Virus record (IMG/VR): IMGVR_UViG_2778261446_000001
Strand: one strand, 5' to 3'
Source of the DNA: a virus
Taxonomy: Duplodnaviria > Heunggongvirae > Uroviricota > Caudoviricetes
Length of the DNA stretch: 21,150 nucleotides
Each line of letters opens with the position of its first letter. The stretch's first letter is position 1. The notes beneath the pieces were generated by a model that did not search any database, had not been told where the DNA came from, and saw only the letters and a program-made list of their open reading frames with translations. Shown here one piece after another: positions 5,453-17,150 of this stretch. Both the position numbers and the translations under genes were made by a program.

Positions 5453-6039
5453 TAGCCGCCTCCCAGTAATGACGCCACGTTACCAGTGATGCTTTTCAGC
5501 AGTGAAGTATCTGGAGGCTTTGTGGTTTTGTTGCCGCTGTTCTGTAGCGCCGACGTGCTGGCCCCTTCCTTCATGTTGGTTTTATCCGCGACGGTGATCT
5601 GCTGTGTCCGGGAGATAAGGACCTCCCTCAGGGTGAGGACGGCGGACAGGACGTTTTCGGTTGTCTTGTCCGTCGTCACTTCCAGCGCCCGGATCAACAT
5701 GTTGCTGTACAGTCGTTTACCGGTTACCACATCGAAGGGGATACGGCTTTCCTGCAGATCCAGTAGCTCCTGATACGTCTGCTGAGGACTCAGGCCGAGC
5801 AGGCTGGTAGCCGTCAGATTACTGGCAAAATCCAGCAATGCGCCGCCACCGGCGAAACCAACCTCCATCACCACTTCTGACGGTTTTTTATAGGCATGAT
5901 CAGCGACAGCGGCCCCGACCTCTACCGGATGCTCTGTTATTTCAAGCATATCTGTATGCTTCTCTGAAATAACAACACTGGGAACAATCATTCCTATTTT
6001 TCTGCTCTGCTGATGAAAAAGTGTAGAGAGAATATCCAC
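5452..6039 (-). CDS. Tail/baseplate protein downstream of tape measure, uncharacterised
   Basis: 195-aa ORF starting at GTG 6039, which overlaps the tape measure TAG stop (TAGTG), with a GAGGG-rich Shine-Dalgarno upstream. An alternative internal ATG at 5991 has poor Shine-Dalgarno spacing. Confidence 0.4.
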   Translation of the reverse strand: MDILSTLFHQQSRKIGMIVPSVVISEKHTDMLEITEHPVEVGAAVADHAYKKPSEVVMEVGFAGGGALLDFASNLTATSLLGLSPQQTYQELLDLQESRIPFDVVTGKRLYSNMLIRALEVTTDKTTENVLSAVLTLREVLISRTQQITVADKTNMKEGASTSALQNSGNKTTKPPDTSLLKSITGNVASLLGGG

Positions 6040-8027
6040 TAACTCACCCTCACCTGATTACTTCGCATGACCTGAGCATTTGCAGACTGTTGCCGACGTG
6101 CAACCTCATTACCGACAGCGTGCGGATCTCCGCCACCGTAAATGTGGTAAGTATTTTGCTGGTTAACCTCTGTCATTTTGCCACTAATTCCCGCCACGGC
6201 AGCCTTATTAATCAGCTCTCGAGAATAGATATTTCTTCCATTTTCATGCTGGATAATGCTGCTCATCAATGCTGACATGGTTTGCGGATCGCTCATATTC
6301 AGGGCAGCCCGGGGATCCACTCCCAGTCGTTGCGATACAGCCCTGATATACGCAGTTGTGTTGTTATTATCAGACGCAGGTGCCCAGGTAGAGATAATTT
6401 TCTCCACACTGTTTATTCCCCGTCCGGCGTACAGCATTAACTGACGAGCAAGAGCCCGTAATCCATCAAAAGCAGTTTCAAATCTGGCAAATCGCCCGCC
6501 CGGGCGTTCAAGAGAAGCCCCTGCCTGACCAGCAAAATTAAGGTTTCCCGGATTGTTATTCCGTTCTCCTCGTTTCGTAGCCTGTGCATATTGTTCCGGC
6601 TCATCATCACTAAACCAGCCGCGTACCGTCCGGCCCACACTGCGGGGATCGAATCCCCAGTGCTCTTTAATCCAGTCGGCAGTACTGTTAGCGCTGTCTG
6701 TAACCATCGGCATCGCTGACGGATTTTCGCTGCCCTGATTAAGTATCTGTTTGCCGATGCTGACGGCATCAGCCCAGCGGCCATCTTTGATAGCGTTGAG
6801 CAGGTCGGCGATCATGTTCAGCATTTTGCTGAATTCGCCCATCTGGTCGATGAAGTTGCTGAAATCCCACTTCAGGGACCATGATTTGGGGTCAATATTG
6901 AGCAGTTTCGCCAGCGCTTTCGCCAGTTCATTAACAGACCCTTTCAGGTCACGAACCATCTTCAGCGCGGCATCGACCTCCGGCTTCCACTTGCCCCAGT
7001 CAATCAGGCTGTCGCCGCCTTCCTTCCAGGTCTGATAGTCCTCCCACAGAAGGGCAATCCCCGCCGCCAGCGCGGTAATGAGGCCAATCGGCGACATCCA
7101 GAACGTACTGTTCAGAATGCGCAGCGCAATCGTCAGCGCGCCAAACAGCGAGATGAGCTCCCGCGTTTGCTTATCCAGCGATTGCCACCAGGTGATGAGG
7201 CCTGATGTTCCTTCAATCAGTCTGAAGAACAGCCGCCCGATAATATCCCCGAGCGCCAGAATGCCTTTTATGGCTTTCGTCAGGGTCTGCTCGATACGCG
7301 GGAAGTTGTCCAGGATATGGCGGCGCAGAGTGTCCAGCGAACCCGCAAGCCCACCCGCAAGATTAGAGCCGATTTTGTCACGGGCCATGCCTGCCATCGC
7401 GCCAAACTCACGCAGGGAGGTCATAAATTTGTTGGAGCTTCTGGCCGCCTCGTCAGCATTGAAGCCGATAGCTTTCGCCATTGCGCTGTACTGCCCGGAG
7501 AAACCACCCACACCCCGGCGCATAGCCATCAGGGTATTTTCGTCAATGCCCAGCATCTGCGCATACTGGTTAGCCCGGTAATACGGCATGCTGCTGAGTT
7601 TCTGTCCAACGCCCGTAAAGATAGCAGCCATGTCACGCATGTTACCGCTGGCATCACGGGTCTGTACGCCCAGGCGATTCAGAAAGCCTTCTGCTCCGGG
7701 ATTGTTACGAATAAACCGGGAGAGGCTTTCCAGAGAAGATCGCACAGCGTCCACACTGCCGCCAACCTGCGAAACCGCATAGCCAATAGACTGAATTCCC
7801 TGGACCGTCGCGCCGGTGCGCTGTGACGCCCAGTAAAGATTATCCAGGCCGGAGGCGATCTTAGCCGTGAAGGCCACCACGGACAGCGCAGCTCCTTCAA
7901 CAGCCAGCCCCATTTTGATGACATTTGCAGTTGTACCGGCGAGGACAGAACCGAACTTTTTCGCTCCTGCATCATCCACACTGAAGCCAAGCGAGACGAG
8001 GAAATCTTTAATAGTTTCAGCGTTCAT
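6039..8027 (-). CDS. Tail tape measure protein
   Basis: Long ORF (track 6039..8048 starts at a TTG). The preferred start is ATG at 8027, preceded by GGAGAGAGG. The protein is Ala/Gly/Leu-rich and helical, with a central hydrophobic segment (LITALAAGIALLW). It follows the chaperone and its frameshift extension, the canonical arrangement. Confidence 0.8.
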   Translation of the reverse strand: MNAETIKDFLVSLGFSVDDAGAKKFGSVLAGTTANVIKMGLAVEGAALSVVAFTAKIASGLDNLYWASQRTGATVQGIQSIGYAVSQVGGSVDAVRSSLESLSRFIRNNPGAEGFLNRLGVQTRDASGNMRDMAAIFTGVGQKLSSMPYYRANQYAQMLGIDENTLMAMRRGVGGFSGQYSAMAKAIGFNADEAARSSNKFMTSLREFGAMAGMARDKIGSNLAGGLAGSLDTLRRHILDNFPRIEQTLTKAIKGILALGDIIGRLFFRLIEGTSGLITWWQSLDKQTRELISLFGALTIALRILNSTFWMSPIGLITALAAGIALLWEDYQTWKEGGDSLIDWGKWKPEVDAALKMVRDLKGSVNELAKALAKLLNIDPKSWSLKWDFSNFIDQMGEFSKMLNMIADLLNAIKDGRWADAVSIGKQILNQGSENPSAMPMVTDSANSTADWIKEHWGFDPRSVGRTVRGWFSDDEPEQYAQATKRGERNNNPGNLNFAGQAGASLERPGGRFARFETAFDGLRALARQLMLYAGRGINSVEKIISTWAPASDNNNTTAYIRAVSQRLGVDPRAALNMSDPQTMSALMSSIIQHENGRNIYSRELINKAAVAGISGKMTEVNQQNTYHIYGGGDPHAVGNEVARRQQSANAQVMRSNQVRVS

Positions 8028-8657
8028 TATCCTCTCTCCATTTCTCAATGCGCCGCTGGTTATCCGCTTTTACCGCCAGGTGGTCATTCAAGAGAGCAAT
8101 GTCGTACAAATCGACAGAGCCATCTTTAAGTGCTGTATAAGGAATTAACCCGGCGTCAACCGGATTGAGAAGGTAGGACAGCCCGTCCGGCAGGCTGTTA
8201 AACGTCAGCCCTGTTGCAGGCTCTGCGTCGTGCTGGTAAGGGGTGTAGGCAAAAAATTTCCCAGCGAATCGGCGACCACCCGCGCCACCAGATGCAGCAT
8301 GACCAGCAAGTCAATATCATCAAACATCAGTTCGCCCTGGGTAAATACCGGAACCCATCCGTCCATATGACGCCGCGATACCACCGCAAGACAGGGATGA
8401 ATAATCGCACTGGTGTCATCTTCGGTCAGGGAAGACAGTTCCTCAGCGATACGCGGGAGCATGGTTTCAAACACCGGTTTTAACTGCTCGAATTTCACGG
8501 TGTCGATTTTGCCATCAGCAGGCAAACGGGAGCGAATGCTCCCGAAATCTGACATCATTCCTGCCAGCACCGGCAGAAGTTTGCGGGTCACTTTCAGCTG
8601 ATCAAAAACGCTGAGTTTTGCCGCGCGATATTTCACGCCTTTGATTTCGAATTCCAT
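8017..8657 (-). CDS. Tail assembly chaperone, -1 frameshifted long form (gpGT-like fusion)
   Basis: The zero frame ends at 8205. The -1 frame is open from the slippery tract (minus-strand A-AAT-TTT-TTG, plus coordinates 8250-8259) for 86 codons to a TGA at 8019..8017, just inside the tape measure start. Translated by hand (...FFAYTPYQHDAEPATGLTFNSLPDGLSY...IEKWREDNER*). There is no start codon in this frame, which is why it is missing from the ORF track. Confidence 0.5.
8205..8657 (-). CDS. Tail assembly chaperone (short form)
   Basis: 150-aa ORF with ATG at 8657 and GGGGAG about 10 nt upstream. Sits between the tube and tape measure genes, and is acidic, as tail chaperones typically are. 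Confidence 0.6.
   Translation of the reverse strand: MEFEIKGVKYRAAKLSVFDQLKVTRKLLPVLAGMMSDFGSIRSRLPADGKIDTVKFEQLKPVFETMLPRIAEELSSLTEDDTSAIIHPCLAVVSRRHMDGWVPVFTQGELMFDDIDLLVMLHLVARVVADSLGNFLPTPLTSTTQSLQQG
8250..8259 (-). other. Candidate -1 ribosomal slippery site in the chaperone gene
   Basis: Minus-strand sequence gga-aat-ttt-ttg contains the overlapping heptamers A_AAT_TTT and T_TTT_TTG. The -1 frame downstream of it is open to the tape measure start. Confidence 0.45.
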
Positions 8658-8660
8658 GTA

Positions 8661-9101
8661 TTAAAACTCCCCGAGAACCTGGTCAATCTTGCCGCAGTCA
8701 AACACCCACGGCATCGTATTACCGGTTTTAGCGTTGGCATTATCCGGTTGTTTCTGGAACGCAACACTACGTGCCGTGATGATGTCGCCGCTGACCTTGT
8801 TTCGGATCACAATAACGTTATTCCCCCATGTGGCAGAAGACTGGCTCTGTGCGTTATACGCCAGCGACAATTTTTTATTTGTCGGTGATGTCTTCAGAAG
8901 GTTAACGGTAATCGTCCCGCTTTTATCTGCATGGAGACTGTGCATCACTTCGCCATCAGAACCGATGGTCATGGTGTTTTTAGGACCGCCCATCGCAACC
9001 ACAATCCCCTCTTCAGAACTTGCAGAACCGTACCCGAGGTCAATCGAACCGGTCGGCCCGGTCAGCGTCGCAGTGACATCCATAAAAGAATAGGTAGACA
9101 T
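8661..9101 (-). CDS. Tail tube protein
   Basis: 146-aa ORF with ATG at 9101 and AAGGGGAAG upstream. Immediately downstream of the sheath gene and upstream of the chaperone; size is typical of myovirus tube proteins. Confidence 0.6.
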   Translation of the reverse strand: MSTYSFMDVTATLTGPTGSIDLGYGSASSEEGIVVAMGGPKNTMTIGSDGEVMHSLHADKSGTITVNLLKTSPTNKKLSLAYNAQSQSSATWGNNVIVIRNKVSGDIITARSVAFQKQPDNANAKTGNTMPWVFDCGKIDQVLGEF

Positions 9102-9111
9102 TCACTTCCCC

Positions 9112-10257
9112 TTAGCGAACAACGTTAATCTGTACGTCAGCGTAATGAACCGCGCCTGCAAGTTTTATTGCAGCCTGAATCACCGGAGCCTTACGGGCTT
9201 CACGTTCTGATTGTGCCTGTTCATCCAGCGGCTGGGCGTATACGTAATAACCTTTGGGCAGTGTGTCACCTGATGACAACTGACCAAGGTCGCCCCCGTT
9301 CCATACGCCCGGAGCAATCAGTCCATTCTGAACGGCCTGATCCAGTGATTTTTCAACATTTGATAACAGTCGGGTAATACCGGCTTCAGTCTGGGGAACT
9401 TTCGTGGTGCTGGTATAAAGCAGGTTATAGAGGTTGGTCTGCACATAATTCTGTAACCAGTCCAGGCCGTGGCGTTCATCAAAGAAATCGCCGTTAGCCA
9501 TCACTCCCTGCTGGAGGATAGCTGTATCATTCTGGTAGTACACGAACACATTGCAGTTTTTTGCATCAAGTGCCGATGCCTGGCTGACTGTCAGTGTTTC
9601 ATACCCGACACCCGGCTCCTGCTTAAACTTGAGCGTAATCGCGGTATTACTGCCATTGAAATTAACCGTGAATGCCCGGCCAAATGCAGATAACGCAGCG
9701 TATTTATTACCCGATGAATATTGAATAAAACTGCGTGAATATCCGGCGGTTTTCAGTTTTGATGCCAAATCATCGCTGGATGCAGTCTGCAGGCATTTCT
9801 CATCGCTTGTCGTAATCGCCAGAATACGGCTTACAGAAGAGGATTCGATCGCCGCAGCCACTTTCAGCCAGTCTGCATCCGGAATATCTTCATCGTCTGC
9901 AATCCCCAGCCCATACCATGAAGTATAATCGAGCATGGCATTCACAGCCTGCTCCAGCGTCTCAGGCGTGGCCTGTTCGCTGTCTCCCTTCGTTTTCACC
10001 CAACGACCAACAAAAACCTCCTGAGGTTTCGGTGATTGAGAGAAAAACACCTGCGCAGCCTTATATTCTGGTGATTCCACGCCAAAATCTTTTCCAATAT
10101 CTTCCGCGGCAGAATAACGGCGAATGCGCTCACTTACCGGAATGATTGTGGACGGGCCGAGAATGAGTAATGCACCAAAATTTCGCCCTGATGCTGCACG
10201 CGGCGACATGATCACATCAACATTAACAACGTTTGATACAGGCAAGCCCTGTGCCAT
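9112..10257 (-). CDS. Contractile tail sheath protein (DUF3383-like from memory)
   Basis: 381-aa ORF with ATG at 10257 and GGAG about 10 nt upstream. It is the first gene of the sheath-tube-chaperone-tape measure block; size and order are typical of short sheath proteins. Confidence 0.7.
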
Positions 10258-15058: not shown

Positions 15059-15832
15059 TCAGGCGAGATAAGAATGAGGGTTGGGAAAAACGATTTCTTT
15101 ATAACAGCGACAATTCGGGAGCTCGCCAGCGTGACCGGTCATGCCATCAAGCGTTGGAGGTTTGCCCCATTCGACAAACTTACCTTCCATCTCCCGATGA
15201 GAATGCCGGACGTCGCCATCTTCGGCTGTACGCCAGATATAACCATTCGAGCCGATTGACAGCGCACGCGCCTGATCCAGCGCGCCGGTTGCACGTCCAA
15301 GCTCGGTACGGGCGATAAGGTTCGCTCGTGAGCGTGACACGTCACCGGACGCTGCTATCTCTTTCGCGAATGGTTCAGCGCGGCCACCAGACACAACGGC
15401 CTCGATGGCCTTGTTCTGAATGTCATACACCCGATCGGCGGCCTCAAGAGGCAGTGACTTGATGTACTTAATTTGCTCGGCGACGATGGATTTCATCACC
15501 TGGCCTACCGGGGCGCGGTCGACCATGTTGCGCAGCTCTGAACTGATGTTCCGGCTGTGTTGACGCCACTGCTTTTCATTCTGGCGCGCTATGTCTGCGG
15601 TGAAGTTCTCAGCTACCTTCGTCGCCCAGGGGGTGATGATTTCACTGTAGCGTTCCAGCGCCTCAATAATTTCCGTGATACTGTCATTTGAACCATCGTA
15701 GCGACCATTTACGATGTCCCCGACCGCCCGCGCTATCTGCCGTAGGCTCGTTCGATATCGGATCTCCGCCTGGCGACTCTGGCGGTTTGTCGCCAAGTTC
15801 GCCGATGCCTGGCGGCGCTTCGTCTTCGGCAT
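15059..15832 (-). CDS. Head morphogenesis protein (Mu F / SPP1 gp7-like)
   Basis: 257-aa ORF with ATG at 15832 and GAGGA 10 nt upstream. Position directly after the portal gene is characteristic. The start overlaps the portal 3' end by 149 nt, so the true start is uncertain. Confidence 0.6.
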   Translation of the reverse strand: MPKTKRRQASANLATNRQSRQAEIRYRTSLRQIARAVGDIVNGRYDGSNDSITEIIEALERYSEIITPWATKVAENFTADIARQNEKQWRQHSRNISSELRNMVDRAPVGQVMKSIVAEQIKYIKSLPLEAADRVYDIQNKAIEAVVSGGRAEPFAKEIAASGDVSRSRANLIARTELGRATGALDQARALSIGSNGYIWRTAEDGDVRHSHREMEGKFVEWGKPPTLDGMTGHAGELPNCRCYKEIVFPNPHSYLA

Positions 15833-17150
15833 TCTCTATGTCCTCGTCGGTAATGGATGCCCCGATGCCGGTTACGTCAGAATTTTCGCGCAAATCGGTC
15901 ATAGCGGCTTTCAGTGTCATCAGACCATCACCCAGCGCCGTACTGATTGCGTTGGTGGTGTTTACGGCCACCGTTGAGCGGTCAACGTCAGACATTTGCC
16001 ATAGGGGGTTAAACTCAAACGTGAAATCGTCCGGCAGCGGCTTACCGAGTTCCGAGCGGTGCATAATGTCCAGTATCCGGCGTATCGGCAGCCGTAAGCG
16101 GCGCTCCTGCAATGAGCTCACCCGGTCGTAATAGTTGGCGAGGTCTGCGTCACCAGTAGAGAAGCCTTTCGGGGATTGACCGAACAGTCGCACCAGCGGG
16201 ATACCAACGGCACCGCTGATCTGCTCAGCGAACTGCGAAAGAATGTCATCCAGACCGCTGAAGCTGTACTGGTGGGTTTCGAACTTATCCCGCGAGTCCA
16301 TGAGCGTCATGCCTTCATTGCTCTGGAACTGGCGGATCAGGTCGATGTTCTTCAGCAGCGCCTCGAACGCCGGGCCGCCAAGCGCGATAAGCTCGCGCAG
16401 CTTCTCCACGCTGTAGGTACGCAGATGTGCTTTGTAGACCAGCTGCGCCGCGCCGACAGTGGCGCTGTCGAACGCAGTAAGCCGATCCCAGATACGCTCT
16501 ACAACCGACATTCCCCATTCGTTTTCGGTCATCTTCTGCTGGAATGGCAGCGTCACCCCGTCGAAGCGAATCAGGCGACTGTGATGGATGCGCCAGGCTG
16601 GAATGCCCGTGGCAGTGGTCACCACATCGTAAAACTCAGGTTTGCCGAGATCTGGCCCCATCTCTTTAATGCGGCGGGTCAGCACCGGGTTAATCATCCA
16701 GCGGTCGAGCGGGAGAATGCCCTTAAACTTGCCTTCTCCAATGGTTTCGAGCCGCAGCGGGGTCATTGGTGCCTGCCCCTCAATCATGATGAAGCCAACC
16801 GCACCGCCATAGAGACGCGACCATTTCAGCACGTCATTCAGCGCATCCCAGATTTGCAACTCATCCAGTTGTGATTCGAGAATGCCGCGATCTTTTGCAT
16901 CAATTTCCGAAGTGATGCGAATGCCTTTGCGGGTCATATCATCCGGGATAGCGTCGACCGCTTCTCCGATAATCCAGGACGAACGATAGGACCATTCCAC
17001 CAGCATGCGGTTACGACTGGTGAAATTAGCCCGATAGGTGGATGCTGAGTGCTGGTTAGGTGTCTGCATCCCCACGCGGGCAACAAAGTTCTCATAGCCA
17101 TCAGCGGTGGCCTGTGCCGTTCGCCGCGTGGCTTGTTTGTTTCGTGCCAT
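15684..17150 (-). CDS. Portal protein (DUF1073-like from memory)
   Basis: 488-aa ORF with ATG at 17150 overlapping the large-terminase stop (ATGA). Directly downstream of the large terminase. The C-terminus is acidic and low-complexity. Confidence 0.75.
   Translation of the reverse strand: MARNKQATRRTAQATADGYENFVARVGMQTPNQHSASTYRANFTSRNRMLVEWSYRSSWIIGEAVDAIPDDMTRKGIRITSEIDAKDRGILESQLDELQIWDALNDVLKWSRLYGGAVGFIMIEGQAPMTPLRLETIGEGKFKGILPLDRWMINPVLTRRIKEMGPDLGKPEFYDVVTTATGIPAWRIHHSRLIRFDGVTLPFQQKMTENEWGMSVVERIWDRLTAFDSATVGAAQLVYKAHLRTYSVEKLRELIALGGPAFEALLKNIDLIRQFQSNEGMTLMDSRDKFETHQYSFSGLDDILSQFAEQISGAVGIPLVRLFGQSPKGFSTGDADLANYYDRVSSLQERRLRLPIRRILDIMHRSELGKPLPDDFTFEFNPLWQMSDVDRSTVAVNTTNAISTALGDGLMTLKAAMTDLRENSDVTGIGASITDEDIENAEDEAPPGIGELGDKPPESPGGDPISNEPTADSAGGRGHRKWSLRWFK

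Follow-up and report, generated by a model that had tools for sequence, protein, structure and literature searches.

A probable programmed -1 frameshift of the G/GT type would extend the tail assembly chaperone of an Escherichia coli prophage into a DUF6889 domain

Is the gap between two tail genes of an E. coli prophage really empty? The DNA analysed here, IMG/VR virus record IMGVR_UViG_2778261446_000001, is E. coli myovirus-type prophage DNA of 21,150 nucleotides (nt), all of whose genes lie on the minus strand; this whole stretch is called the window, and all coordinates refer to it. The stop codon of its tail assembly chaperone gene (G) is separated from the ATG of its tape measure gene by 177 nt, in which no open reading frame (ORF) of at least 40 amino acids (aa) with a canonical start is present. 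The order on the strand is sheath, tube, chaperone, an ORF in the -1 frame relative to G (T), and tape measure. An earlier reading of this DNA (the original prediction) had proposed that T is reached by a frameshift, in the G/GT arrangement of long-tailed phages. The G/GT mechanism is that of phage lambda (gpG/gpGT) and is widely conserved (Levin, Hendrix, Casjens 1993; Xu, Hendrix, Duda 2004, 2013, 2014; reviewed in PMC5009743). Based on sequence comparisons, we consider it highly probable that a programmed -1 ribosomal frameshift of the G/GT type yields a GT fusion at this locus.

G (8205..8657, -; 150 aa, zero frame) was identified from the ORF list, its translation and its Pfam and PHROG matches, and it ends with the TGA at 8207..8205. 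The -1 frame has 97 open codons, beginning at 8310 and closed by the TGA at 8019..8017 (8017..8310, -). It shares 103 nt (8310..8208) with the 3' end of G and 11 nt with the tape measure gene, its TGA lying 8 nt inside the latter. No ATG, GTG or TTG occurs in this frame from its opening to an LPDG motif, and the first TTG lies inside the conserved domain described below. The slippery tract G_GGA_AAU_UUU_UUG (8250..8262, -), whose register was checked against the G frame, is situated in the overlap. Its zero-frame codons (8261..8250) are GGA AAT TTT TTG, preceded by a G at 8262, and it contains three overlapping in-register heptamers of the form X_XXY_YYZ, namely G_GGA_AAU (8262..8256), A_AAU_UUU (8259..8253) and U_UUU_UUG (8256..8250). 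The T segment read after the shift would comprise 78 codons (8020..8253, -), and the predicted GT fusion would consist of residues 1-135 of G plus 78 residues, i.e. 213 aa (approx. 23.5 kDa).

Much of this had been described correctly in the original prediction. It had placed the end of the chaperone ORF at 8205, it had given A-AAT-TTT-TTG at 8250-8259 with the right coordinates and register (the G at 8262 adds the third heptamer), and it had noted that the -1 frame lacks a start and ends at a TGA overlapping the tape measure start (ATG 8027..8025). The lengths, by contrast, had to be revised: the gap is longer than the stated 150 nt or so, the 86 codons assigned to the -1 frame are 97 when counted from 8310 or 80 sense codons from 8259 to the stop (of which 78 would be decoded after the shift), and the fusion is predicted to be somewhat shorter than about 220 aa.

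How much weight does an open frame of this length carry? A 97-codon open frame was found in 74 of 5000 dinucleotide shuffles of this one sequence (1.5%). The window alone is therefore inconclusive and only modestly unusual, and T could on this count be an accident of base composition or the relic of a once separate gene. It is the comparative evidence, not the open frame of a single sequence, that is decisive. The -1 translation matches the Pfam family DUF6889 (PF21829) with 70.6 bits (gathering cutoff 23.9, E = 8.9e-20) and phrog_4364 at 1.4e-22, and both matches fall wholly in the -1-frame part of the conceptual fusion; the domain occupies fusion residues 173-211 (8026..8142, -). G itself matches Pfam Phage_TAC_15 (PF21822) with 106.1 bits (gathering cutoff 22, E = 2.4e-30) and phrog_1688, 'tail assembly chaperone', at 1.7e-64.

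A scan of species-representative genomes yielded 61 loci that are 46-85% identical in G, from Enterobacter, Citrobacter, Pantoea, Photorhabdus, Serratia, Erwinia, Arsenophonus and others; one 28-residue fragment at a contig end was left out, and 60 loci were analysed. In 57 of them the -1 frame reaches 182-197 nt past the G stop. The exceptions are L012, L033 and L043, in which the defects are a frameshifted G, an indel in the T part, and a truncated or rearranged T; all three look like visibly decayed prophages. Stops interrupting the -1 frame, which the original prediction had named as a finding that would speak against it, were otherwise absent from the 60 loci, and the conserved G/GT arrangement claimed in the original prediction is borne out by the gene order, the DUF6889 match and these relatives. 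More distant sequences were covered by a tblastn search of 50,697 phage records with the fusion. It matched 40 records, down to 31% identity, each of them as two pieces, G and T (40/40), and T was in the -1 frame relative to G in all seven distant records examined.

The pattern of substitutions was assessed as mean pairwise diversity at each codon position in 59 unique aligned sequences from the diverged relatives. Beyond the G stop, the diversity at positions 1, 2 and 3 of the -1 frame is 0.29, 0.24 and 0.56, and inside the G overlap it is 0.33, 0.32 and 0.55. The bias to the third position of the -1 frame is found inside the overlap as well, and here too it is chiefly this frame that is under selection. 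The 15 G residues after the slip site (8205-8249, -) are poorly conserved, and over the ten codons past the slip site the -1 peptide (consensus ARTPRQRD) has a mean identity of 60% as opposed to 35% for the G tail. To judge from these alignments, selection within 8205-8249 is borne by the overlapping -1 frame and not by the G frame, and the -1 extension is coding and under purifying selection from the slip site on. A frame with such a third-position bias and a significant Pfam match, which is kept at the divergence described above and lost only in visibly decayed prophages, is barely conceivable as an accident or a relic. Two plus-strand ORFs in this region (7867..8148 and 8214..8483) were taken as antisense artefacts, as the codon periodicity fits the minus-strand -1 frame; no separate test was made.

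A coding T frame could also be a small independent gene, in which case the DUF6889 ORF would be translated alone from a non-canonical start and would not be fused to G. Database annotation is in keeping with this: RefSeq/PGAP lists a separate 54-aa coding sequence (CDS), 'DUF6889 family protein', starting with the CTG at 8181 in E. coli genomes that carry this prophage (315/5426 genomes), and there are 26 database clusters of stand-alone models of 43-132 aa. However, the annotated CTG is not conserved, its place being taken in most relatives by GAA or GAG (the Glu of 'PDGEDF'), and the database models of the T ORF begin at inconsistent positions, CTG included. In 52 of the 60 loci the stretch from the slip site to the conserved LPDG motif is free of ATG, GTG and TTG, and a promoter-like site is absent from the gap. 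Moreover, the conservation and periodicity of the -1 frame begin at the slip site, inside G and upstream of any proposed start. We thus regard a separate gene as highly improbable. A search of the gap for terminator-like signals gave one match, which is at chance level.

Termination-reinitiation at the G stop, where a CTG overlaps the TGA in the window, was also considered and rejected: the relatives have TTA or ATA at this place, and conservation of the -1 frame begins upstream of the G stop. The T ORF (8017-8181, -) is in addition found in the database as 'NTP pyrophosphohydrolase', with differing starts and lengths of 43-78 aa. This name looks spurious, and so does the gene model. In RefSeq genomes of E. 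coli and Salmonella, the CDS annotated on its own is almost certainly a mis-modelled fragment of the GT fusion, and the T domain that the frameshift adds to the Phage_TAC_15 chaperones can be identified with DUF6889.

If T is reached from within G, the site of the shift should be looked for where the two frames overlap. Among close viral contigs, the GGGAAA-T6-G tract is identical in 79 of 80; the remaining one (L134) differs in one upstream base and still has T6. The closest phages are Escherichia vB_EcoM-606R2 and relatives (98% nt identity), Yersinia YP3 (83%) and Salmonella SEN34 of the genus Brunovirus (75%). All of them keep the open -1 frame and an identical GCTGGGAAATTTTTTGCC, and their records carry no frameshift annotation. 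The lysogen E. coli S163-2 is 100% identical to the window at this locus. In the 60 enterobacterial loci the T6 run is invariant (60/60); the preceding GGGAAA is present in most and varies in some. In two loci (L052 and L057) the T6 run directly follows a stop codon of the -1 frame, and a shift could therefore occur there only on U_UUU_UUN.

Two true homologues are already annotated accordingly. Klebsiella phage Mulock (CPT_Mulock_014/015, MN098327) is about 58% identical over G and T, and Burkholderia phage Magia (CPT_Magia_015/016, MT701587) about 36%; for both, GenBank has a chaperone and a joined 'tape measure chaperone frameshift product', which are database predictions. The slip tract of Mulock, GGGAAATTTTTTG, is identical to that of the window. 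Magia differs in having C_CCU_UUU at the homologous position.

The distant phages (31-39% identical; hosts include Burkholderia, Bordetella, Acinetobacter, Ralstonia and Providencia) extend this series. In-register heptamers are C_CCU_UUU in Burkholderia phages Magia and BgManors32, only G_GGA_AAU in Bordetella phage IFTN9, U_UUU_UUU in Providencia phage PSTCR3, G_GGU_UUU / U_UUU_UUC in Ralstonia phage PY059YO380, and G_GGA_AAU / A_AAU_UUU in Acinetobacter phage AbTJ. The heptamer lies on an LG-x-F or LG-x-T motif in five of these six phages; the G tails of the Providencia and Ralstonia phages cannot be aligned there. What is conserved across the family is an in-register X_XXY_YYZ near the 3' end of G, placed on the LG-x-F motif wherever this can be recognised, and not a fixed sequence or a long homopolymer. 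Such a pattern is characteristic of tandem tRNA slippage on the ribosome.

This bears directly on transcriptional slippage, in which RNA polymerase would add one U on the T6 run (8255..8250) in some transcripts and so give rise to the same fusion with the junction GNFFAYTP. The invariance of T6 in all enterobacterial loci fits this explanation, as a shorter run would do for A_AAU_UUU. So does a variant at the DNA level: Logan contig SRR23924998_45326 (L154, 1892-1911; homologous to 8250-8265) has T7 instead of T6 and encodes an in-frame 213-aa G-T fusion (P0001, 16 member sequences), and the database protein from this contig has the very junction, GNFFAYTP, that is predicted for the window. 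In another database protein (P0003) the frame changes in the opposite direction after GNF. The P0001 and P0003 variants are either homopolymer errors or rare natural variants. On the other hand, productive runs in bacteria comprise about nine A or T according to the review PMC5009743, whereas only six are available here, and IFTN9 (GGGAAAT) as well as Magia and BgManors32 (CCCTTTT) keep the in-frame heptamer without a long homopolymer. Conservation of the heptamer without the long run favours ribosomal over transcriptional slippage. We consider the latter improbable as the explanation of the fusion and possible as a minor contributor.

In the ribosomal frameshift that we favour, most ribosomes would stay in the zero frame as far as the TGA at 8207..8205 and produce the 150-aa G, and a minority would slip by -1 on G_GGA_AAU_UUU_UUG and run on to the TGA at 8019..8017 to produce the 213-aa GT. 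The efficient class of slip sites in E. coli, H_HH.U_UU.Y, includes A_AAU_UUU, C_CCU_UUU and U_UUU_UUY, and U_UUU_UUG was efficient in a eukaryotic assay only (Sharma et al. 2014, PMC4066793). Since A_AAU_UUU belongs to the efficient class and U_UUU_UUG does not, the likeliest event would be a slip of tRNA-Asn and tRNA-Phe on A_AAU_UUU (8259..8253), giving …SLGNF-FAYTP…. In addition or instead, a second chance one codon further on, U_UUU_UUG, would give …SLGNFL-AYTP…. The two junctions would differ in what they can tell: SLGNFFAYTPYQ would be compatible with a shift on A_AAU_UUU or G_GGA_AAU, with slippage in the P site only or with transcriptional slippage, while SLGNFLAYTPYQ (GNFLAYTP) would be compatible only with tandem ribosomal slippage on U_UUU_UUG. 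By analogy with lambda, the G part common to both proteins would form a coat on the tape measure protein, the tube subunit would be brought in by the rarer T part (DUF6889) and would polymerise into a tube around the tape measure, and neither G nor GT would stay in the virion. The ribosomal nature of the slippage, its efficiency, the heptamer used and the roles of G and T are what we infer here.

Several observations weigh against a ribosomal frameshift at this site. U_UUU_UUG, the sole heptamer found in every enterobacterial locus, is outside the efficient E. coli class. The fold of the window sequence downstream of the tract is not significant (z = -0.65), and the consensus fold of 36 diverged sequences has an energy of -0.25 kcal/mol with two invariant pairs and zero covariation. 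A Shine-Dalgarno-like element upstream is not kept in all relatives, as far as the flanks were compared by eye and without a dedicated search. As no conserved stimulator was found, the efficiency of slippage cannot be predicted. The invariance of the full T6 run is not completely explained either, because T4 would be enough for A_AAU_UUU, and some transcriptional slippage may contribute. In Edwardsiella phage ZHS the -1 ORF is present but a canonical heptamer is not. Finally, the paper describing the Mulock genome is silent on a frameshift, and for neither this prophage nor any of the relatives found did we come across an experiment that detects the fusion.

Some details belong with these points. 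By eye, the place that GGGTGGT has upstream of the slip site in the window is taken by CGTGTAATCGGGGA or CAGGTTATCGGGGA in the loci of Photorhabdus and Izhakiella. Rfam gave no match in the region. In the Edwardsiella phage (vB_EpM_ZHS; L153, 395-1074), the G tail reads …NLGDFMKE…, where the Phe codon offers no more than a short run of T, and the gene at the tape measure position is annotated as 'portal protein'. Literature searches found no paper on DUF6889 and nothing relevant for SEN34 together with frameshifting.

Comparison with known systems places the locus among those of the G/GT type. As in lambda, there are two overlapping ORFs between the tail or tube gene and the tape measure gene, the second of them is in the -1 frame, lacks its own start and ends at the tape measure start, and a slippery heptamer is found in frame close to the 3' end of G. 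The lambda heptamer is G_GGA_AAG; G_GGA_AAU is one of the three in the window. Lambda G/GT frameshifts at a few percent, and no stimulator is known for it. Unlike lambda, the window encodes a contractile tail (sheath plus tube) and has three overlapping heptamers instead of one, and its proteins, which belong to the families Phage_TAC_15 and DUF6889, have no detectable sequence similarity to lambda G or T. As far as sequence can tell, the locus has every feature that defines the G/GT class at this level (Xu, Hendrix, Duda 2004). It differs from the stimulated signals of dnaX, IS3 and IS911 in that a conserved downstream hairpin or pseudoknot was not found.

Phage P2 (E/E+E') is like the window in its contractile tail and in the -1 frameshift of the G/GT type that precedes its tape measure gene, and its frameshift efficiency is reported to be 2-3 fold above that of lambda (both according to PMC5009743); by Pfam and PHROG assignment, the P2 chaperone is unrelated in sequence to that of the window. 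Conserved -1 frames have also been argued for Pseudomonas phage Adele (TAC-N/TAC-NC), for other Vandenendeviridae and Andersonviridae and for Pakpunavirus (PMC12846349, 2025). The Adele group resembles the window in its uninterrupted -1 frame between chaperone and tape measure and in a downstream ORF that is routinely mis-annotated as hypothetical (PMC12846349). It has an invariant GTTTTT near the 3' end of TAC-N, i.e. T5 after a G, versus T6 within a triple heptamer in the window (PMC12846349). These phages belong to different families and have different hosts.

The slip site also occupies a defined place in the chaperone. An exhaustive search for the family yielded 1270 cluster representatives, and all 112 of 112 diverse homologues match Phage_TAC_15 as well. 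Among 112 diverse family members, Phe135 is conserved in at least 90%, within the consensus NLGxFF. The AlphaFold2 (AF2) model of G has a predicted local distance difference test (pLDDT) score of 90.5, with residues 1-132 folded and lower confidence in the tail after the slip site, so that the slip site (G codons 133-136) lies at the end of the folded domain of the model. A Foldseek search of this good model against the PDB gave nothing significant, and PDB sequence searches with two profiles returned only noise. The model of the whole GT fusion (mean pLDDT 43, from a shallow alignment of closely related sequences) was unusable and did not enter the structure search.

The neighbouring genes form a late operon of the myovirus type, with terminase, portal, head genes, sheath, tube, chaperone, tape measure and baseplate. 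The tail sheath gene (9112..10257, -) matches Pfam PF11863 (DUF3383) at 5.9e-101 and phrog_205, 'tail sheath', at 7e-136. Directly upstream of G is the tail tube gene (8661..9101, -), which matches PF11681 at 6.8e-60, a Pfam family named for the structural protein ORF10 of Pseudomonas phage KPP10 that also bears the name Phage_Tube_PhiTE. The tape measure gene (6039..8027, -; 662 aa) matches phrog_2276, 'tail length tape measure protein', at 2.5e-282. Its ATG, which is the same start as in RefSeq, is preceded by the ribosome binding site GGAGAGAGGA within the end of the T frame. The region of about residues 440-650 of the protein has matches to endolysin and transglycosylase PHROGs, and the RefSeq name for the entire product is 'lytic transglycosylase'; seemingly, this is a tape measure protein that carries a muralytic region at its C-terminus. 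Further upstream, the head-morphogenesis ORF (phrog_324; 15059-15832, -) shares 149 nt with the 3' end of the portal gene (15684-17150, -) if it is counted from the earliest start available, and its true start is probably further downstream.

For the G/GT paradigm, the locus adds nothing new mechanistically; the finding is real but ordinary, and its value lies mainly in annotation. The prophage type is present in about 6% of complete E. coli genomes, and a joined CDS should replace the separate CDSs in RefSeq and the empty gaps in the records of SEN34, YP3 and vB_EcoM-606R2. A more speculative proposal, which we put forward with considerable reserve, is that the 13-nt tract may be a structure-independent slip site offering several chances, in which three heptamers, possibly with a minor contribution of U insertion by RNA polymerase on T6, would jointly set the G:GT ratio. 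DUF6889 would then be a sequence-conserved T domain across phages of Entero-, Beta- and Gammaproteobacteria and might provide a handle on how T domains recognise tubes of the PF11681 family. The heptamers found in this family (A_AAU_UUU, U_UUU_UUG, C_CCU_UUU and G_GGA_AAU) form a natural test set for the rules that govern bacterial slip sites.

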